64,000 nt of DNA from Candidatus Harrisonbacteria bacterium (lineage in GTDB: Bacteria; Patescibacteriota; Minisyncoccia; UBA6257; 02-FULL-45-10c): NCBI GenBank assembly GCA_016192685.1, contig JACPTS010000001.1:529099-593098 (forward strand), given 5' to 3'. Positions 3,234 to 47,554 of this stretch are shown here, piece after piece. Positions within the stretch are counted from its first letter, which is position 1, and each line of letters begins with the position of its first letter. The notes under the pieces were generated by a model, which had not been told where the DNA came from, made no database searches, and saw nothing but the letters and a program-made list of their open reading frames with translations. The translations under genes were made by a program, and so were the position numbers.

Positions 3234-3296
3234 TTTATTTTTTTAATTATAATTGCGACCTTTTGGCTAAACCTTTTAGAAAATAAAAAGGGACAG

Positions 3297-3430
3297 CCAG
3301 AACCTGCAACCCACAGTATTGAAAGCCGTGAAGCTCCCAATTGTGGAGGTTTGGCTGCCCCTTTCTGCCCGCAATTGGGCTAAGTAGCAGCTCTTCACGG
3401 AAAAACAATACTGTAGGTTGCATTTTTATT
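3297..3430. repeat. Long imperfect inverted repeat / structured intergenic element
   Basis: tgcaacccacagtattg...ccgtgaag...caattg is mirrored by caattggg...cttcacgg...caatactgtaggttgca, giving arms of about 40 bp. Confidence 0.5.
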
Positions 3431-3489
3431 TTAACACCATATATTTTGATTAGTAAATTACTCCAAAATGTCTTTTGATAAACTTGGTG

Positions 3490-3852
3490 CTAATTTTCAC
3501 AAATTTTAATTGTTAATGGCGACTTTACTGCGGTGCGTAATACCACTCCTTTCTTCGCAAAATTAGTAATATAGTTTTGTAAGTAGTCATCCGTTACAGA
3601 GTTTTGGTCATAAACGATTAAAATCCGTCTAACAAATTCCGTGCTCAGCATTTCTTGAAGCTGATTTATCGTGCGGATATTTGCATCACCACATTCTTCA
3701 TCGGCAATACATTCGCTGATGTAAATATCCGTTTCTGGATTTATGTCAAAACCATTTTCCTTTGCGTATTCTAAACATTTCTCTTTTCGTAGCCCCAACG
3801 ATTCTTTGTGAGGCGCACATTTATTTAGGTAAATTAACGCTTTATTTTTCAT
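3490..3852 (-). CDS. Degenerate serine-recombinase catalytic-domain paralog (catalytic Ser replaced by Cys)
   Basis: ALIYLNKCAPHK...KCLEYAKENGFDINPETDIY aligns to the integrase N-terminus ALIYLRVSTDRQ...RCLEYAKQNGYGVDETTDIY, but the S-TDRQ motif is lost. 120 aa. Confidence 0.6.
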   Translation of the reverse strand: MKNKALIYLNKCAPHKESLGLRKEKCLEYAKENGFDINPETDIYISECIADEECGDANIRTINQLQEMLSTEFVRRILIVYDQNSVTDDYLQNYITNFAKKGVVLRTAVKSPLTIKICEN

Positions 3853-3857
3853 ATTTT

Positions 3858-4337
3858 TTAGTTATTAGCCAATATTTGCTTACGGGCATTATTTAATTTA
3901 TTAACAAAGTAATCAGCTTCATTTTGCGGTAATTGCTGCACTATTTCATATAAACTAAATTCTTTATTGTTATTGCTTTCTACTGGTTTTGGCGGCTCAA
4001 GCCGTAAAAGTTCGGCCTGCCCCCTTAAAAGTTTTTGCAGTGCATTCAATGCACCAATTTTGGCATTGCTATTATCCGCCTCACTAAAAACGCACCAGCA
4101 TTCTTTAATTGCCAAATCGTAAGCCAATACCTGATTACAGAAATAGCGGTCAAGGTTTAATTTTTTATTACGATTACCTACTCGCCGTGCGGCCACCCGC
4201 AAATATTCTTTGGCCGTTGCCCAGTTTTTAATTCCAAGCCGCCGCATTATTTGATATGGCTTTTTAACGCCTATTACAAATAAAGCTTCAGTTTCGTCTA
4301 ATAAATATTCTCGGTCTATGTTTTTATGATTGGCCAT
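3858..4337 (-). CDS. Hypothetical protein (island)
   Basis: 159 aa ORF in the leftward island block, no recognisable motif. Confidence 0.35.
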   Translation of the reverse strand: MANHKNIDREYLLDETEALFVIGVKKPYQIMRRLGIKNWATAKEYLRVAARRVGNRNKKLNLDRYFCNQVLAYDLAIKECWCVFSEADNSNAKIGALNALQKLLRGQAELLRLEPPKPVESNNNKEFSLYEIVQQLPQNEADYFVNKLNNARKQILANN

Positions 4338-23679: not shown

Positions 23680-24504
23680 ATGGAAATAATAACAAAGAAA
23701 TTTTATTTAAAGCTTGGTTTATCAGAAAAAGATATTTTAGCTCTTAATAAAGAGCTTTCATTACTCGCTGGACTTAAATTAAGTCCATCTGCCAAACCTC
23801 GTCGTATAGAAATGTTACAAGAGGCCATTCGATGGCCAAAAGGTAAAAATCAAGAAAAAAGGAAAATAACGGAGCTTTATAAATCTGGTGATTTTATAGT
23901 TGCCGTTGGTAAACCAGGAAAAGAAGCGGCGCCAGCTTTCAAACGGAAACATTACATAACTGGCAAGATTACTAATAATCCAAATGACATGAACCCCTTT
24001 GTTATGAGGGGAGGTAAAAAAGTTGGGAATGATTTAACTTTTGCAGAATTATTTGAGCAAATTGAACATTTAATTCGAGCAGATTTACTTGGATTGGAAC
24101 TTTTAGGGATGCTTATATTCAGAATGGCTTTTATGTTAGATCACAAAAAAGATTTAAAGGGGAAATGGAGATATATTCCTCCGGAAAAATCTTTGGCAAT
24201 GCTTAAAAAACGACTCCCTAAAGTTGGCGATATTCCGGTAGATATATTTTTATATTTTCTCGATGTATTAGCTCTCAATGAGGATGTTAAGATGCATACC
24301 TTGGGTCATGAAAATGCTCGATATGATTATGGACGAGTCAATACTTTACTTACCTTTACTCACTTAATTGCAGTTTTATTAAATCGACGCTCTCTAGCAA
24401 AATTTGCTGGTACGTTTGCTCGGCCACCTTCGGGAATGGCTCCACTACCTAAAATAAAAGGACTTTTTGAAACTTATCCTCTTTTATCTCCAGATTTTGT
24501 TTAA
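23680..24504 (+). CDS. Hypothetical protein, possible PD-(D/E)xK nuclease
   Basis: 274 aa. Contains IPVD-x12-EDVK. Its 3' end overlaps the fused LexA-MTase gene by 4 nt in convergent orientation. Confidence 0.3.
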   Translation: MEIITKKFYLKLGLSEKDILALNKELSLLAGLKLSPSAKPRRIEMLQEAIRWPKGKNQEKRKITELYKSGDFIVAVGKPGKEAAPAFKRKHYITGKITNNPNDMNPFVMRGGKKVGNDLTFAELFEQIEHLIRADLLGLELLGMLIFRMAFMLDHKKDLKGKWRYIPPEKSLAMLKKRLPKVGDIPVDIFLYFLDVLALNEDVKMHTLGHENARYDYGRVNTLLTFTHLIAVLLNRRSLAKFAGTFARPPSGMAPLPKIKGLFETYPLLSPDFV

Positions 24505-25967
24505 ATTTTAATCCTTTTTCTTCCCAGAAATAATTTATGTTCTGGAGCAATGAAACCATTTGCGAGGCGTTTGTTTATTATGTCACAGTATTCTTTGTTG
24601 AGCTCGGCCGAAATAAATTGGCGATTTAAATTTCTGCATACATCTATTTCTGCACCACTACCACCAAAGAGAACTAAAACCTTATCTTTTGGCTTAGTTG
24701 ATGATTTAATAAACATTTCAGTTAATTTTTGTGGAATTTGACAAGCGTGAAAAGTTTTTTCTTTGCTGACATTTTTTACAAGATTAAACTCAAACCATGA
24801 GTAAGGCATTCTTCCCTTTGAGCCATTTGCCAGATTTTGACGAATTCTTCTGTCTGTTGGATTTTTATATGGTAACGCTACTGCGTCTTTGAAGAATTTA
24901 TTATCAGCACTTTTACGAACATGAAGTATGCTTCTGTGTGCTGTTGTGAATCTTTTTGGTGTATGTCCGACATTTGTATTATAAACCCAAACATACTCAT
25001 TAATATTAGGAAAATTTATATCTAAGTATTTTACGCGAAGATGTGCATTTTGTTGAGGATAGTTCATCATAAAAAGGTTCCCATCGTTTTTTAGAACTCT
25101 CATTGATTCCTTAGTAAGTTCGGTATACCAATTTAAATAATCGTCAAAATTTCTTGTATAGTTATTACTACCATATCTAATACCGACATTATAATCCGGA
25201 TCCCCAAAAATCATGTCAATGCTATTATTTGGCAGGTCTTTCAAAACATGCATTATATCGCCGTTGTAAACTTTATTGATATATTCAGAAATATTTCCAC
25301 GTTGTTGGGGGCTTTTTTTAGAGGGTAGAATAAATGATTGGTTTAATTGTTTTATCTTATTAGTTTCAATAACATCCAGCATAATTCCTTGAATATGAAA
25401 ATCTTGTCCGCGGCGCACAATTATCGGCTCCATTTTTTTATTTGCCGGTTGTAGACGAACTTGCCCGCGTTCTTTATAGAATTTTTTAAGCGTTGCTCCA
25501 CCATCAACTAAGGCCACAATTTTTTGACCATTTTCAGCAGTGCTTTGGTGGCGCACAAGAATTGTATCGCCATCATTAATATTTTCATCAATCATACTGT
25601 TACCAGCTACTTTTAAAGCGTAAATATTGCTATTGCTGGAATTGGGGAGTTTATTTTTAGGAATCGCTATATTTTCGCTTACAGTATCAAATAGTGTTAA
25701 TGGTTGACCGGCAGCAATAGTGCCCAGTAGGGGAATTTGAACCATTTGTTCATTTTGGTTAGATAATTCAATCCCACGAGAGATGTTATCATTTCGTCGT
25801 AAAAAACCTTTTTCTACAATCGCATCAATATGTTCCAATATCGTTGAGTGCGCGGAGAGGCGAAAATGTTTTTTAATTTCCTCCGTGGTAGGGGAAATAG
25901 ATTGTTTTTTAATAAAATCAGAAACAAAATCGTAAATTTGTTTTTGACGTCTTGTCAGTGTTGCCAT
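24501..25967 (-). CDS. Fusion protein: LexA-type repressor (wHTH plus S24 autopeptidase) fused to a beta-class N4/N6 DNA methyltransferase
   Basis: The N-terminal approximately 200 aa form a complete LexA: wHTH, hinge IPLLGTIAAGQP with the Ala-Gly scissile bond, Ser VAGNSM, Lys ATLKK. The C-terminal approximately 290 aa carry MTase motif IV (IFGDPDYN) ahead of motif I (VLFGGSGAE). Single uninterrupted ORF of 488 aa. Confidence 0.75.
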   Translation of the reverse strand: MATLTRRQKQIYDFVSDFIKKQSISPTTEEIKKHFRLSAHSTILEHIDAIVEKGFLRRNDNISRGIELSNQNEQMVQIPLLGTIAAGQPLTLFDTVSENIAIPKNKLPNSSNSNIYALKVAGNSMIDENINDGDTILVRHQSTAENGQKIVALVDGGATLKKFYKERGQVRLQPANKKMEPIIVRRGQDFHIQGIMLDVIETNKIKQLNQSFILPSKKSPQQRGNISEYINKVYNGDIMHVLKDLPNNSIDMIFGDPDYNVGIRYGSNNYTRNFDDYLNWYTELTKESMRVLKNDGNLFMMNYPQQNAHLRVKYLDINFPNINEYVWVYNTNVGHTPKRFTTAHRSILHVRKSADNKFFKDAVALPYKNPTDRRIRQNLANGSKGRMPYSWFEFNLVKNVSKEKTFHACQIPQKLTEMFIKSSTKPKDKVLVLFGGSGAEIDVCRNLNRQFISAELNKEYCDIINKRLANGFIAPEHKLFLGRKRIKI

Positions 25968-26224: not shown

Positions 26225-26677
26225 ATGGCAATTCAAATGGATTTAAAAAAGATTTCGTTGATTCGTATAGAGGGTGCTAAAATACTATTAGATAAAGGAG
26301 ATTATCAAGGTTCTGCATATATGATGGGTCTTGCTCTAGAGTGCGCCTTAAAGGCAACTGTATGCAAAACTCTTAGAATACCCACCTATCCCGAAGATTA
26401 TAATGCCGATAAAAAAGTTCCCGACTTTTTTATGACGCATTCTTTTGTTAGACTATTATTAGTATCTGGTTTAACAGATATATTTAGTGCAAGTAGCAAT
26501 AACGTTAAAGCTTTCGATAACTGGTCCTTTTTTACGATTCAATATCCGGGTGAATGGGTGAGTATGCGCTATAGATTAGATCAGTTTGAACAAGATTTAA
26601 CAGAGGAGTTATATCAATGTTTATATTTTGATGAGAATAGCATTATTAAAGTCATTGAATATCAAAATAGATGGTAG
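26225..26677 (+). CDS. HEPN-like small protein (AT-rich accessory gene)
   Basis: N-terminal helix pattern AKILLDKGDYQGSAYMMGLALECALKA, typical of the HEPN fold. No clear Rx4-6H motif. Confidence 0.35.
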   Translation: MAIQMDLKKISLIRIEGAKILLDKGDYQGSAYMMGLALECALKATVCKTLRIPTYPEDYNADKKVPDFFMTHSFVRLLLVSGLTDIFSASSNNVKAFDNWSFFTIQYPGEWVSMRYRLDQFEQDLTEELYQCLYFDENSIIKVIEYQNRW

Positions 26678-27066
26678 ATAAACTTAAAAAAATATTAAGC
26701 AAAATGAAATCAGATGGAAAACCAGTCTGGCTATTTGCTTTTTTAAAAATGGATGAAATTATAGATAAATGGTCTTTAGTTATTTCTGCGCCTTGGATAA
26801 ATGAACAAAATCGTGATCAAGAATTTGAATATATTATCAATTTGTTAAAAGAAAATCTTAATGGCGAAGAATTATCTTCAATAGCTCGTATTAGTGTTTT
26901 GGCTAAAGATAGTCATTTAAGTCAAGAATTAATGAAGAAAAAAACAGGTGATTTAATAAAGGAAGAACAAATAAATGGCAACATTATTCACGAAGGTCAA
27001 ATATTGGAATCAAGCGTTGAGGCGCAGTGGCCATCAAATAATTTATTTGCTAAACAATCAAGTTAA
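26671..27066 (+). CDS. Hypothetical protein (overlapping partner of the HEPN-like gene)
   Basis: 131 aa. Overlaps the upstream gene by 7 nt. AT-rich. Confidence 0.3.
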   Translation: MVDKLKKILSKMKSDGKPVWLFAFLKMDEIIDKWSLVISAPWINEQNRDQEFEYIINLLKENLNGEELSSIARISVLAKDSHLSQELMKKKTGDLIKEEQINGNIIHEGQILESSVEAQWPSNNLFAKQSS

Positions 27067-27079
27067 ATTTACTTTTATA

Positions 27080-27192
27080 AAAATTTTCTGCTAATCTATA
27101 CCAAAACCGGCGTTATATTTTTTAAATAAAATTAATCAAACCGAGTCAAATCAGTTTATTATCGCAAAACCTGCCCTTGGCAGGTTTTGCGT
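27080..27192 (+). repeat. Intergenic repeat module, copy 1 (partial: ttctgctaa-ctataccaaaaccggcg plus terminal hairpin)
   Basis: Shares the ttttctgctaatctataccaaaaccggcg segment and the hairpin cgcaaaacctgcc-cttg-gcaggttttgcg with the modules at 27969 and 29087. Confidence 0.6.
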
Positions 27193-27426: not shown

Positions 27427-27957
27427 ATGCAAATACCCAGACGGAAGTCGGAAGAACTTAGGAGGAAAGTTGAGGGGCCGATTCATATAACTGAAGAGGG
27501 TTTTAAGCGCCTGAAAGAACGGCTGGCGCATCTTAAACTTGCGCTGCCTGGCTATATCGTTGAGACGCAACGGGCCGCCGCATTCGGCGATCGGTCGGAT
27601 AATGCTGAATATAAAGATGCAAAATCAAGATTAACCCGCACGCACTTACAAATTTTAAGAATTCAGGATCAAATTAAGCGGGCGGTGATAATTCCTTCGG
27701 GTCAGAATACTTCTGGCTCGGTCCAGCTCGGTTCCACTGTTATATTGCGGGCCGAAGGCCTCGAGTATTCCCGAGGGGCAGGTGAGTCGCGGAAAACTTT
27801 TCAAATTCTTGGCGCGCATGAAACCAATCCAACTTTAGGGCGTATTTCATTTCAGTCGCCGCTCGGTGCCGCGCTTATGAATCACAAAAAAGGCAATGCC
27901 GTCACAATCCAGACCCCAACCGGTCCCCAAAAATATATTATTTTAGAAATTAAATAA
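27427..27957 (+). CDS. greA: Transcription elongation factor GreA
   Basis: GDRSDNAEY motif and a C-terminal FKBP-like domain. 176 aa. Confidence 0.85.
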   Translation: MQIPRRKSEELRRKVEGPIHITEEGFKRLKERLAHLKLALPGYIVETQRAAAFGDRSDNAEYKDAKSRLTRTHLQILRIQDQIKRAVIIPSGQNTSGSVQLGSTVILRAEGLEYSRGAGESRKTFQILGAHETNPTLGRISFQSPLGAALMNHKKGNAVTIQTPTGPQKYIILEIK

Positions 27958-27968
27958 ATCATTCGGTA

Positions 27969-28095
27969 AAAATTCCCTTTCCTGAAAATTTTCTTTTTGG
28001 TTATCTTCTCTAATTGTATCGAATGATTGAATAGTTTCAAAAATAAAATTTGCCCTTCTAAAAATTTTCTGCTAACCTATACCAAAACCAGCGGC
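27969..28095 (+). repeat. Intergenic repeat module, copy 2 (approximately 125 bp)
   Basis: aaattccctttcctgaaaattttctttttggtta(t/c)cttctctaattgtatcgaatgattgaatagtttcaaaaataaaatttgcccttctaaaaattttctgctaacctataccaaaacc is near-identical to 29087-29212. Confidence 0.8.
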
Positions 28096-28173
28096 AAAAA
28101 TAGCGTTTTTGCAATACAGTTATCCACCAAAGTTATTTATTACAGGTTAGTTATTATAGATTATCCGCAACAT

Positions 28174-28199
28174 TCTAACATTCTGCAGAATGTTGGAAT
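28174..28199. promoter_or_regulatory. 26-bp palindrome (candidate ArsR-family operator), upstream copy
   Basis: ttctaacattctgcagaatgttGgaa, with 1 mismatch from a perfect palindrome, overlapping the regulator start. Confidence 0.6.
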
Positions 28200-28495
28200 G
28201 TTGCGGGAGTAATGATATAGTGAAAATTATGAAAACGCCGAAACAACTAGAAAGACACTTTAAGGGGGTAGCCAATCATTGGCGGATCGCGATTTTATCA
28301 ATCGTGCATCAAAATGAGGGGATTGCGGTTGATGGCATCACGAAAGAGCTTAATGCGAATTTTAAAACCATTTCCCAACACACTAGATCATTGGTCCAAG
28401 CCGGCCTTTTGAATAAAAAATATCTCGGCCGCCAAGTAACCCACACCCTCTCGCCTTACGGGAAACTTTTTCTTAAATTTATTAAATCATTCTAA
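28190..28495 (+). CDS. ArsR/SmtB-family HTH transcriptional regulator
   Basis: HWRIAILSIV...GIAVDGITKELNANFKTISQHTRSLVQAGLL wHTH. 101 aa. Confidence 0.7.
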   Translation: MLECCGSNDIVKIMKTPKQLERHFKGVANHWRIAILSIVHQNEGIAVDGITKELNANFKTISQHTRSLVQAGLLNKKYLGRQVTHTLSPYGKLFLKFIKSF

Positions 28496-28515
28496 CATTC
28501 TGCAGAATGTTAGAA
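28490..28515. promoter_or_regulatory. Perfect 26-bp palindrome, downstream copy
   Basis: ttctaacattctgcagaatgttagaa, which is its own reverse complement. Overlaps the regulator stop. Confidence 0.65.
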
Positions 28516-28677
28516 TAAAGTTTCTAAAGATAAAATTCCCTTTCCTGAAAATTTTTTGCAGCGGGGTTAAAATTTTTCAAAACATTCTCAAGTGTGTAAG
28601 GATGTTATTTTTAATATAAAATTCTTTTGCCTGAAAATTTCCGCCTGTTATGGATTAAAGAATGCTAGAATAAACAA

Positions 28678-29076
28678 ATGAGAACTTATCAGGAATTTTA
28701 TCAGAGCATCCAGAAACCATTTTTTTCTCCGCCGGAATGGGCGTTCGGGTTGGCGTGGGGGATTATTTATCCGCTGATTGTGGTTGCTGGAATATATTTG
28801 ATTTATCTGGTTTATAAAAAACAAGCGCCGAAAAGTTTACTATGGGTTTTTCTTGCAAATTTGGCCGCGAATCTTTTATTTACTCCAATTCAGCTTGGTT
28901 TGAAATCGCTTTGGCCGGCGTCAGTTGTTATTTTAATAATTTTAGGAACTTTGGCTTTTTTTGAATATAAAATCCGGCTTCATTCCAAATTGATTTTTGT
29001 TTTGCTTTTGCCTTATCTTTTGTGGGGCGCATTTGCCACTGCGCTTCAGCTGTCAATCACCCTTTTAAATTTTTAA
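28678..29076 (+). CDS. TspO/MBR-like tryptophan-rich membrane protein (short)
   Basis: KPFFSPPEWAFGLAWGIIYPLIVVAGIYLI matches the TspO KPxWxPP...VWxxLY signature. 132 aa, about 4 TM helices. Confidence 0.5.
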   Translation: MRTYQEFYQSIQKPFFSPPEWAFGLAWGIIYPLIVVAGIYLIYLVYKKQAPKSLLWVFLANLAANLLFTPIQLGLKSLWPASVVILIILGTLAFFEYKIRLHSKLIFVLLLPYLLWGAFATALQLSITLLNF

Positions 29077-29086
29077 TTTAAATAAA

Positions 29087-29283
29087 ATTCCCTTTCCTGA
29101 AAATTTTCTTTTTGGTTACCTTCTCTAATTGTATCGAATGATTGAATAGTTTCAAAAATAAAATTTGCCCTTCTAAAAATTTTCTGCTAACCTATACCAA
29201 AACCGGCGCTACAATTTTTAATAAAATAACCCAAATTAATCAGATAATTCGCAAAACTTGCTTCCGCGGCAGGTTTTTTGTCA
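29087..29283 (+). repeat. Intergenic repeat module, copy 3 (full: approximately 125-bp core plus terminal hairpin)
   Basis: Near-identical to 27969-28095 and extends through cgcaaaacttgcttccgcggcaggtttttt. Confidence 0.8.
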
Positions 29284-29415: not shown

Positions 29416-29673
29416 ATGGAAAATAAAGAATTCATTTCAACAGTTGAGCTGGCCCAGATCTTGGGTATCAGTCGGCAAGCGGTAGCTGACAAAATTAAAC
29501 ACGGCAAAATAAAAGCCCAAAAATCCGGCCGGGTTTATGTGATTCAAAGAAAAGATATCCCGGAAATTTTAGGCGAGGTTTTAACCGAAAGCGATAAAAA
29601 AGAAATAGAGGTGGCGGTTAAGAAAACCGTAAGAGAGTACGGCGAAACTTTAAGATTGCTTGGAAAAGAATGA
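29416..29673 (+). CDS. HTH (excisionase/MerR-like) antitoxin, Phd-like partner of Doc
   Basis: STVELAQILGISRQAVADKIKHGKI HTH. 85 aa. Overlaps the toxin gene by 4 nt. Confidence 0.6.
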   Translation: MENKEFISTVELAQILGISRQAVADKIKHGKIKAQKSGRVYVIQRKDIPEILGEVLTESDKKEIEVAVKKTVREYGETLRLLGKE

Positions 29674-30095
29674 AATCCATCACAATATCCGAAGTGGAAT
29701 ACGTGGCGTTTCGATTGGCGAAAGAGCATATGCTGTGGGATGAGCCGATTCCGGATTTCGGTTCCCGTTTCCCGAATATTTTAGAAAGCTGCCTGGCGTC
29801 CCCATTCCAGTCTTTCGGCGGCAAAAAATTATACAAAGGATTGCTGGAAAAGGCATCGGTATTATTTTATCTGATGGTGAAAAATCATCCTTTTAAAAAC
29901 GGCAATAAAAGAATCGCAATGACAACACTGCTTTATTTTTTATATAAAAATAAAAAATGGATAAAAGTTGATAATCAGGAACTTTATAATTTTGCCAAAT
30001 GGGTGGCTGCCAGCAATCCTAAATTAAGGCGAGAAACAATTGCCGCCATTAATAAATTTCTCTCAACTTATTTACAAAATTTTATGATAAAATAA
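29670..30095 (+). CDS. doc: Doc/Fic-family toxin (death-on-curing)
   Basis: Fic/Doc motif HPFKNGNKR (HxFx(D/N)GNKR). 141 aa. Confidence 0.75.
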   Translation: MKSITISEVEYVAFRLAKEHMLWDEPIPDFGSRFPNILESCLASPFQSFGGKKLYKGLLEKASVLFYLMVKNHPFKNGNKRIAMTTLLYFLYKNKKWIKVDNQELYNFAKWVAASNPKLRRETIAAINKFLSTYLQNFMIK

Positions 30096-46660: not shown

Positions 46661-47554
46661 ATGGAGAAAGTTGTTCAGGAAGATAAATTTAAATATTTAA
46701 GGATAAGTTTAGGATTATTAATTACGCTGGATATTTTAATTTGGGTTTCAATTTTATTTCCGGTTCGCCGGCTGGCGGAGAAAAATTTAGAGCTTTATTT
46801 TTTGGACGTCGGGCAGGGGGACAGTTCTTTTATCCGGCTGGTCGGTGGAGTAGATTTGCTGATTGACGGCGGGCCGCCGAATGGGCGATTAGAGAAGAAT
46901 TTAGAGAAGATTTTGCCTATTCAAGACCGCTATATTGATTTAGTAATGGTATCTCATCCGCAATTGGACCATTTCGGCGGATTGATTGAGGTTTTGAAAA
47001 ATTATAAAATTGGAGCGGTTTTAACCAGTAATCAAATAAGCAAGCAGGCAGCCTGGCAGGAATTAGAAAAAATTATTAAAGAAAAAGGAATTCGGCGGAT
47101 TATTTTAGCGGCCGGCGATAAAATTAAATATCAGAATTCACAATTAGATATTTTATCGCCGCGAACTTCAGACTGGGCAAAAGACATCAATGATTTGAGT
47201 TTGGTGGCGCTTTTACAATATCCTTACATACTTGAGAATGTAAGGGTGTTGTTTACGGGGGATATTAGCGGTAAAAAGGAAAAAGAACTGGCAGATTTAT
47301 ATGATTTAGATGTTGATATATTGAAAGTCAGCCATCACGGGTCGCGATTTTCTTCCGACAGCGCGTTTTTAGAAGAAGCCAGCCCGGCAGTTTCAGTTAT
47401 TGAAGTCGGCAAAAATTCTTACGGCCATCCGACATCGCAGGCGCTTGCCCGGCTGGCTAATTTTAGCAGCCAAGTTTATCGGACGGATAATGACGGATTA
47501 GTGAAGTTATTGATTGACGGCGGAAAGTTAAGGGTCTATGCCGCAAAGCAGTAA
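46661..47554 (+). CDS. ComEC-associated metallo-beta-lactamase-fold domain protein (separate ORF)
   Basis: DVGQGDSSFI, HPQLDHFGG (HxHxDH). N-terminal TM helix. Confidence 0.7.
   Translation: MEKVVQEDKFKYLRISLGLLITLDILIWVSILFPVRRLAEKNLELYFLDVGQGDSSFIRLVGGVDLLIDGGPPNGRLEKNLEKILPIQDRYIDLVMVSHPQLDHFGGLIEVLKNYKIGAVLTSNQISKQAAWQELEKIIKEKGIRRIILAAGDKIKYQNSQLDILSPRTSDWAKDINDLSLVALLQYPYILENVRVLFTGDISGKKEKELADLYDLDVDILKVSHHGSRFSSDSAFLEEASPAVSVIEVGKNSYGHPTSQALARLANFSSQVYRTDNDGLVKLLIDGGKLRVYAAKQ

Follow-up and report, generated by a model that had tools for sequence, protein, structure and literature searches.

The window analysed here, a 64-kb (64,000-nucleotide) stretch of a Candidatus Harrisonbacteria contig, encodes an 88-amino-acid winged-helix protein with an ArsR/SmtB fold, and the gene is enclosed between two copies of a long, nearly perfect palindrome. 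We predict, as the more probable interpretation, that both palindromes are cognate DNA sites of the enclosed protein, a sensor-less, HlyU-like member of the ArsR/SmtB winged-helix group. Autoregulation through its own predicted operator is the best reading for the gene, and it is well supported by comparative evidence. The palindrome is also a class-wide, dispersed and partly intragenic element tied to the regulator protein, and it is likely mobile, or was once so.

The window contains the 26-mer TTCTAACATTCTGCAGAATGTTAGAA two times, with a single mismatch at 28173-28198 (G in place of A at 28195) and with none at 28490-28515. Dinucleotide-preserving shuffles gave 0 matches to the 26-mer and none are expected by chance; thus, the two copies reported around the gene in a first-pass annotation of this DNA are real. 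Over the 34-bp span of the family consensus (28169-28202) the upstream copy agrees with the consensus at 30 of 30 positions, and its arms contain one T.G mismatch (28176/28195). Each site consists of four ACATTC/GAATGT hexamers in the order -> -> <- <-, with each arm made of two tandem 8-bp AACATTCY units. The dyad is a perfect 12-2-12 arrangement that extends to 16-2-16. The window contains a single regulator-family gene.

The left arm of the downstream palindrome encodes the last sense codon and the stop codon of the regulator (TTC TAA, 28490-28495), as the first-pass annotation had it. The overlap that it described between the upstream copy and the start of the gene applies only to the first ATG of the mechanically called open reading frame (ORF) at 28190, which is the ATG inside the palindrome's own cagAATGtt. 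The start at ATG 28229 is supported by the identical 88-amino-acid product annotated by NCBI (in a Candidatus Harrisonbacteria metagenome-assembled genome (MAG), on a 608-kb contig) and by the homologues, all of which begin MKTPKQLE. Because this is the true start, the upstream 26-mer sits 31-56 nt before the start codon.

We fetched 80 loci that carry the protein, from different genomes (proteins 65-81% identical; loci L070 and L072 are identical, a whole-region duplicate that is uninformative). The inner motif ACATTC-N4-GAATGT is present upstream of 53 of the 55 evaluable genes and downstream of 54 of 59, with 34-nt consensus sequences of AACATTCCAACATTCTGCAGAATGTTGGAATGTT for the upstream copies and AACATTCTAACATTCTGCAGAATGTTAGAATGTT for the downstream copies. 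In 45/54 genes the distance from the stop codon to the centre of the downstream palindrome is exactly 7 nt. Proteins of the 88-amino-acid type end at the TAA of the palindrome's left arm (...K-T-F-stop), and in those of the 91-amino-acid type the same frame continues as far as a TGA in the middle of the palindrome (...T-F-Q-H-S-stop). Beyond this unit, neither the flanking DNA nor the neighbouring genes are related among the loci, and the GC content of the flanks ranges from 27 to 58%. The earlier proposal that one operator was duplicated along with the gene is thus too small a picture for a pair this ancient and conserved. Centre-to-centre distances around the gene have a mode of 317-320 bp within a broad range (306-357); phasing for DNA looping was considered and rejected, as the distances are broad and the 10-bp pattern is weak and explicable by promoter geometry.

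The same unit is held by seven contigs (L024, L032, L035, L041, L043, L051 and L061) labelled Kiritimatiellia/Verrucomicrobiota, an assignment that is the depositors' own. These contigs are 4 to 182 kb long (five exceed 100 kb), have GC contents of 52-58%, and carry a regulator gene whose GC content is adjusted to that of the host. They suggest either an old transfer between phyla or mis-binning. In L024, L032, L035 and L041 the upstream palindrome is directly preceded, at its left edge, by a consensus TTGACA, and in L043 and L061 the upstream palindrome lies more than 120 nt from the ATG.

A promoter scan of the window places a -35-like TTGGAA within the upstream palindrome (Table 1), followed after 17 nt by TATAGT preceded by TG and, 7 nt further on, by the ATG of the regulator. 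No Shine-Dalgarno sequence fits between the -10 box and ATG 28229. Because the -10 box ends so close to the start codon, we predict a leaderless transcript. The geometry recurs in the homologues. Measured from the palindrome centre, the -10-like hexamer is most often at +31/+32 (33/67), with another group around +22; the commonest position of the ATG is +43/+44, and smaller groups lie around +34 and +52. The base at +10 is G in 38/50 upstream copies vs 6/50 downstream copies, where A is found instead; G for A at this position converts TTAGAA into the better -35 element TTGGAA. A leaderless promoter with its -35 element inside the operator would imply classical autorepression, in which protein bound to the upstream site would keep RNA polymerase off the promoter and thereby repress its own gene.

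The AlphaFold2 model of the regulator (mean predicted local distance difference test score, pLDDT, 88) has helices at residues 4-14, 17-28, 34-41, 45-57 and 76-87 and strands at 61-66 and 69-74. CadC, HlyU, SmtB, CzrA, PagR and NolR are its best structural matches by Foldseek (template modelling (TM) scores of 0.75-0.85), and the best 50 matches are nearly all ArsR-family structures (0.70-0.85). Sequence profiles place the protein near the edge of the family. It scores 22.5 bits against Pfam HTH_5 (ArsR; cut-off 22), with a nearly equal MarR score, and a sub-threshold 36.4 against NCBIfam HTH_metalloreg ('metalloregulator ArsR/SmtB'; cut-off 55). A profile of 24 homologues searched against PDB matches HlyU (2e-5), CadC and ArsR (1e-3) and also Lmo1102 (range 2e-5 to 4e-3). 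Metal-ligand sites were sought in the 88-amino-acid sequence, which contains no Cys and has an a5 helix (PYGKLFLKFIKSF) without His, Asp or Glu. On the model and the sequence together, the regulator is predicted to be an ArsR-fold protein of the non-metal-sensing kind, not a metal sensor.

The recognition helix (FKTISQHTRSLVQAGLL) is almost invariant among homologues. The best 120 of 931 database matches are 72-84% identical to the regulator, and lineage labels among its MAG matches include Harrison-, Wolfe-, Jorgensen-, Lipton-, Sung-, Kaiser- and Giovannonibacteria and other Parcubacteria. An exhaustive profile search (E <= 1e-10) yielded 157 clusters at 50% identity, mostly of 88-95 amino acids. 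Searches of PADLOC and PHROGs with the regulator returned generic winged-helix similarity and nothing more, and homologues were not found in plasmid and phage collections.

The protein and its flanking sites co-vary. The four central bases of the palindrome vary between systems (TGCA, TATA, TTGA/TCAA or TTAA), and the upstream and downstream centres agree in 77/86 genes, compared with 35.6 expected from shuffles. Among the alignment columns, residue 54 of the predicted recognition helix shares the most mutual information with the palindrome centre (0.82 bits; next column 0.54), and residues 50, 47 and 44 are also among the top ten. Ser, Ala, Lys or Thr at position 54 pairs with CTGCAG in 60/64 proteins, Arg54 (with Asn47 and Asp44) with CTATAG in 13/17, and Arg54 (with Glu50) with CTTGAG/CTTAAG in 18/18. 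At one locus (L006) both protein types are encoded 1.6 kb apart, each flanked by its own type of centre, and other loci contain solo sites of the 'other' centre type. Two protein/site dialects coexisting in single genomes have the look expected of orthogonal repressor/operator pairs, and the co-variation supports direct binding of the regulator to the palindrome.

The claim that the gene is flanked by its own operators and autoregulated can therefore be kept for a predicted operator, given the ArsR fold, the dyad on the gene's own promoter in >50 independent lineages, and the co-variation of recognition helix and centre. The downstream copy would offer the protein a second site where the transcription unit ends, and would add a long hairpin to the transcript. 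Our best guess is a boundary function, in which this copy insulates or ends the unit as a roadblock or terminator; cooperation with the upstream site ~317 bp away is possible. The right arm of the downstream copy also contains TGTTAGAAT, a faint hint of an operator-embedded promoter. As a separate observation, CTGCAG, the centre found most often, is a PstI site; the remaining centre types are CTATAG, CTTAAG, CTTGAG and CTCGAG.

The two copies at the gene belong to a Parcubacteria-wide family of ~34-40-bp palindromes, a dispersed element that probably is or was mobile and would have the protein as its dedicated binding partner. A strict 28-mer pattern (ATTCYAACATTCTNNAGAATGTTRGAAT) matches at least 120 metagenome contigs and has no match in 2.9 million viral contigs (a 14-base pattern gave single matches per viral contig, which were judged chance, given 14 specified bases, and discarded). 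Among 145 strict matches listed, 35 (24%) flank a regulator-family gene, 75 clearly do not, and 35 are too near a contig end. The 80 loci contain 37 extra palindrome copies within +/-3 kb of the gene, sometimes in arrays, as in L063, where six sites each lie between consecutive genes. Thus, the palindrome is indeed part of a larger repeat family, one half of what the first-pass annotation would have taken as refutation (a larger repeat with no relation to the regulator), but the family is tightly linked to the regulator. A third, variant copy in the window lies in frame within an ORF for a protein of the metallo-beta-lactamase fold (46661-47554), where it is read as QYPYILENVRVL; its ACATAC-TTGA-GAATGT form is also present in L044 and in three sampled metagenome-derived 40-mers.

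Palindrome pairs bracket modules of one to three genes, including RelE/ParE-like toxin-antitoxin pairs, a PIF1-like helicase and a 250-amino-acid nuclease-like protein; TspO genes are found beside single copies. We sought a common regulon by clustering 1,432 neighbouring ORFs and found no dominant family. The 143 ORFs that neighbour palindrome copies fall into 160 Pfam families, none recurring more than twice, with a lean to accessory and defence functions, and the copies lie in low-GC, accessory-gene-rich surroundings. Among solo copies, an outgoing gene start is faced by 36% of TAGAAT-type arms vs 23% of TGGAAT-type arms (p = 0.03), and an incoming gene end by 49% of TGGAAT-type arms vs 33% of TAGAAT-type arms (p = 0.016), an orientation bias that lends slight support to an operator-embedded promoter in some copies. 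Two neighbours of the regulator stand out on their own account, in loci that include L010, L012, L049, L077 and L078: a PIF1-like helicase is the most frequent (9/80 loci), often touching a palindrome, and a 250-amino-acid DUF559/MTES_1575-like protein recurs in 7-8 loci.

Well inside ORFs of >=150 amino acids lie 19/349 palindrome copies, 13 of them in the single frame H-S-N-I-L-(Q/K/E)-N-V-(G/R)-M. Nine were checked, in genes for QueA, TsaD, MnmA (two positions), TruB, a formyltransferase, Lgt, a Mur ligase and a reverse transcriptase. Their arms, 17-20 bp long, are near-perfect (no more than one mismatch). In 7/9 of these genes there are Pfam domains that extend across the copy; in one MnmA (L320) and the Mur ligase (L238) it falls just past the last domain. 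In QueA, the query and 4 of the best 120 homologues have a 14-amino-acid segment that holds the motif, whereas the closest other homologue among them (80% identical) and the remainder lack it; judged from this alignment, the QueA copy is an indel polymorphism. In TsaD, HSNILKNVRM aligns at equal length with the native KKHPELLKNKNY of more distant homologues, and intermediate forms exist, which speaks for replacement or drift in situ more than for a simple insertion. Five of the nine checked copies lie in tRNA-modification genes (QueA, TsaD, MnmA twice and TruB), and a sixth is in the formyltransferase gene (the loci include L277, L284, L291, L320 and L207); this could be chance or a real bias.

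The palindromes are symmetric beyond what recognition by a protein calls for. At pair 10, C.G is found in 151 sites and T.A in 130, with 41 mismatched (322 in total), and in one genome the upstream site has C.G and the downstream site T.A, such that symmetry is kept site by site. In each case the base in one arm is accounted for, by the stop TAA or by the -35 TTGGAA, with the other arm following suit. As RNA, the upstream copy in the window folds at -30.4 kcal/mol (z = -8.7) and the downstream copy at -13.1 kcal/mol (z = -4.5). Neither is called terminator-like, and the stems are A+T-rich. Runs of at least four T in the 6 nt after the stem follow 25% of downstream copies, with T mildly enriched just past them. 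Mismatches of the G.U and C.A types show no strand bias. At the gathering threshold, Rfam reports four tRNAs in the window and nothing else; the upstream palindrome gave sub-threshold matches to miRNA precursors, as a generic hairpin. As a separate matter, a second, G+C-rich conserved hairpin (GAATACGCCAAGCGGGTGGCGTATTGG) follows the downstream palindrome in L045, L054 and L074 and is possibly the real terminator.

Several findings weigh against a palindrome that is simply the operator of the gene it encloses. The co-variation of protein and centre could reflect co-inheritance of the gene and its flanks as a unit, not recognition, a view that is less favoured because the signal concentrates in the recognition helix. 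The two arms co-vary within single sites (193 double-change cells vs 86 +/- 18 after shuffling, 0/500, for 126 distinct sites), with slid controls scoring far lower, and complementarity runs 2-3 bp past the conserved core. Because a dimeric protein requires neither, this points to a hairpin or cruciform constraint, or a symmetrising process, besides protein binding. Solo copies are about threefold commoner between convergent than between divergent genes (30 vs 10 by naive ORF calls) and are without fixed -10 spacing or promoter geometry; thus, most copies are not classical promoter operators. The search for an enzyme able to move the element found none: no transposase, recombinase or integrase recurs among the 51 + 143 ORFs that neighbour copies. 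There is also no function that explains the exact register between downstream copy and stop codon.

The dispersal of the copies, only about a quarter of which flank the gene among the matches listed, would suit a purely selfish mobile palindrome moved by an unlinked enzyme, akin to repetitive extragenic palindromes (REPs), Rickettsia palindromic elements (RPEs) or miniature inverted-repeat transposable elements, with the winged-helix gene a passenger and the palindromes not operators. In-frame copies in housekeeping genes, presence and absence in QueA among close homologues, the symmetric arm changes with complementarity past the core, and the low-GC, accessory-gene-rich surroundings are all in keeping with such an element. 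We nevertheless regard it as distinctly unlikely, since random insertion would not fix the -10/ATG distance and the stop-codon register in dozens of lineages, residues of the recognition helix track the central bases, transposases and recombinases do not recur near copies, and the TsaD motif replaces a native segment of equal length with intermediates, unlike a simple insertion. The stable folds, the compensatory changes in both arms, the position of the downstream copy at the very 3' end of the ORF with T mildly enriched after it, and the enrichment of solo copies between convergent genes could instead mean that the palindromes are chiefly RNA hairpins (terminators, 3'-end stabilisers or RNase III sites) that punctuate transcription units. 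This is very unlikely: the sequence itself, beyond pairing, is near-invariant across genomes of 27-58% GC, the upstream copy lies before the predicted transcription start, the T-runs are confined to about a quarter of downstream copies, strand bias and Rfam families above threshold are absent, and the palindrome lacks the G+C-rich stem and U-tract of an intrinsic terminator.

Sites for site-specific recombination (Xer/pdif- or attC-like), bounding exchangeable cassettes of which the winged-helix gene is one, would explain why palindrome pairs bracket small modules of toxin-antitoxin, PIF1 helicase and nuclease-like genes, why arrays such as the six sites of L063 occur, and why centres differ between systems and match within a pair, as a crossover region would. 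We hold this to be highly improbable. Xer/dif and attC sites have asymmetric arms, a 6-8-bp crossover and a cognate recombinase; here the arms and the commonest centre (TGCA) are symmetric, leaving no polarity, the tandem-hexamer 16-2-16 arms differ from the 11-6-11 of dif, and no tyrosine or serine recombinase recurs among the neighbouring ORFs. In-frame copies within genes and the fixed promoter geometry would also be left unexplained. A narrower question is whether, as the first-pass annotation proposed, the regulator controls the TspO-like gene, with the downstream copy as the operator. TspO is the next gene in the window, immediately follows the downstream palindrome in L015, L045 and L063 and comes second after it in L076, and an isolated right-arm half-site overlaps its -10 box (Table 1). 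The neighbour differs in most loci, however: the 51 palindrome-adjacent downstream genes represent 69 Pfam families, with TspO in 3, and TspO is directly downstream in ~4/80 loci besides the window. There is no fixed -10 spacing after downstream copies, and ~160 nt that include unrelated repeats separate palindrome and TspO, which has its own extended -10 box (TGCTAGAAT) ending 6 nt before ATG 28678 and ~150 nt past the palindrome. Control of TspO is thus weakly supported, not general, and, in our view, unlikely.

Table 1. Palindrome copies, promoter elements and genes in the window, with coordinates counted from its first nucleotide.
Feature	Coordinates	Strand	Remarks
Upstream palindrome	28165..28206	.	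42 bp, 21-nt arms, 95% complementary
-35-like TTGGAA	28193..28198	+	inside right arm of upstream palindrome; promoter scan
Extended -10 box TGaTATAGT	28213..28221	+	last base 7 nt before ATG 28229
Regulator gene	28229..28495	+	88-amino-acid winged-helix protein, ArsR/SmtB fold, a1-a2-a3-aR-b1-b2-a5
Downstream palindrome	28489..28516	.	perfect 28-mer; consensus span 28486-28519, 26/30 to consensus
Right-arm TGTTAGAAT	28508..28516	+	matches extended -10 consensus; mirrored on minus strand at 28489-28497
Degenerate remnant of CTCAAG-centre copy, AACATTCTCAAGTGTGTA	28581..28598	+	3 mismatches
Isolated right-arm half-site AGAATGCTAGAAT	28659..28671	+	contains TGCTAGAAT extended -10 box
TspO/MBR-family gene	28678..29076	+	recurrent but minority downstream neighbour of regulator
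Third, variant palindrome copy AATATCCTTACATACTTGAGAATGTAAGGGTGTT	47217..47250	.	23/30 to consensus

TspO also appears to be leaderless, with a transcription start predicted at its ATG, 7 nt after the TGCTAGAAT box. A -10 box directly before the ATG is found for the regulator, for TspO and for several downstream genes in other loci. In L045 the TspO-like gene directly downstream of the regulator (ORF 3292-3930) holds an in-frame palindrome copy at position 3585 (QHSNILQNVGML) and encodes 212 amino acids vs ~150.

The regulator and TspO are bracketed by a 144-nt direct repeat (27950-28093 and 29065-29208, 92% identical), which carries a promoter-like TTGAAA-16-TACAAT on its minus strand. A partial third copy, the 3' half, is located at 27060-27130, after an ORF that ends at 27066. 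Three instances of the sub-motif AAATTCCCTTTCCTGAAAATTTT each lie 13-38 nt past a stop codon (27970, 28533 and 29085). GC content dips to 0.34-0.35 between 24000 and 30000, compared with ~0.41-0.44 around it, in what looks to be an accessory island; the genes in the dip encode a LexA-methylase fusion, a weakly HEPN-like overlapping pair (26225-27066), GreA, the regulator, TspO and an HTH_17/Doc toxin-antitoxin pair (29416-30095). The fusion (ORF 24501-25967, minus strand, 488 amino acids) combines LexA DNA-binding, Peptidase_S24 and N6_N4 methyltransferase domains. Its location 2 kb upstream, and the adjacency of LexA in L009, raised the idea that the palindrome is a LexA box, which the half-sites, being unlike GAAC-N4-GTTC, do not favour. 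A replication origin or terminus was rejected, as GC skew is monotonic across the window.

The analysis predicts a complete protein/DNA pair, comprising an 88-amino-acid protein, a 34-bp site, the specificity residues and a leaderless promoter. To our knowledge, bacteria of the Candidate Phyla Radiation (CPR, or Patescibacteria) are very poor in transcription factors, and hardly any of their regulation has been characterised by experiment; in the searchable literature we found neither the motif nor the regulator described in CPR. Given that the pair is conserved across a large uncultured class, one electrophoretic mobility shift assay or heterologous reporter would generalise to hundreds of genomes. 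Orthogonal protein/site dialects could serve as compact synthetic repressor-operator pairs. The copies also raise the questions of how a perfect 34-bp palindrome spreads, or arises in situ, in essential genes of minimal genomes, and of what a dedicated binding protein does at dispersed and in-frame copies.

One tentative answer, which we offer as possible rather than probable, is that this is a new kind of element, a coding-compatible palindrome of 34-42 bp accompanied by a non-catalytic DNA-binding protein of its own, resembling a REPtron without the transposase. It would have spread through Parcubacterial genomes and some MAGs with Kiritimatiellia/Verrucomicrobiota labels, to positions between genes, around accessory modules and, in frame, within essential genes. 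The regulator gene would be built into the element, with its promoter in one copy and its stop codon in the other. Dialects of the S54-CTGCAG, R54/N47-CTATAG and R54/E50-CTTGAG types could coexist in one genome, and the protein might tame, mark or exploit the copies, for instance as an insulator or roadblock in transcription or replication.

In REPtrons, a gene for a REP-associated tyrosine transposase (RAYT) is flanked by two ~35-bp palindromes, and other REP copies are dispersed, for the most part between genes and often at gene 3' ends. The system described here likewise has short dispersed palindromes, two of which flank an associated gene. It differs in that the gene encodes an 88-amino-acid winged-helix protein rather than an HUH/Y1 transposase (with no Y1_Tnp-type match in Pfam or NCBIfam), in the low number of copies (3 in 64 kb), in the class-wide rather than species-specific conservation of the sequence, and in that some copies are in frame. 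RPEs are ~150-bp elements restricted to Rickettsia that lie in frame inside unrelated housekeeping genes and for which no transposase is known (PMC10969869). The palindrome also lies in frame in unrelated genes and adds a conserved peptide, and the QueA copy is an insertion relative to homologues; unlike RPEs, the element is 34-42 bp long and is linked to a DNA-binding protein, and its TsaD copy is an equal-length replacement.

The replication terminator protein RTP of Bacillus subtilis is a small, autoregulated winged-helix protein that binds ~30-bp composite Ter sites, present in several copies, with its own gene beside such sites and regulated through them. Ter sites are asymmetric and clustered at the terminus, whereas the palindromes here are perfect, and the GC skew of the window gives no sign of an origin or terminus; nothing points to replication arrest. 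HlyU, PagR and NolR are closer in kind, being small palindrome binders without metal-ligand motifs (HlyU is matched at 2e-5 and all three at TM scores of 0.74-0.79). These proteins control a few virulence or nodulation promoters, and we know of none that is bracketed by its own sites or tied to a dispersed repeat family. ArsR-family repressors of the SmtB/CzrA type bind 12-2-12 operators on their own promoters and mediate negative autoregulation. In comparison with these, the protein lacks Cys and the alpha3N and alpha5 metal-ligand motifs, its site is longer (16-2-16, with four hexamers), the stop codon is part of a second copy, many further copies exist, some of them intragenic, and the protein is 65-81% identical class-wide. 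The two systems share the fold and a perfect 12-2-12 inverted repeat that overlaps the regulator's own promoter.

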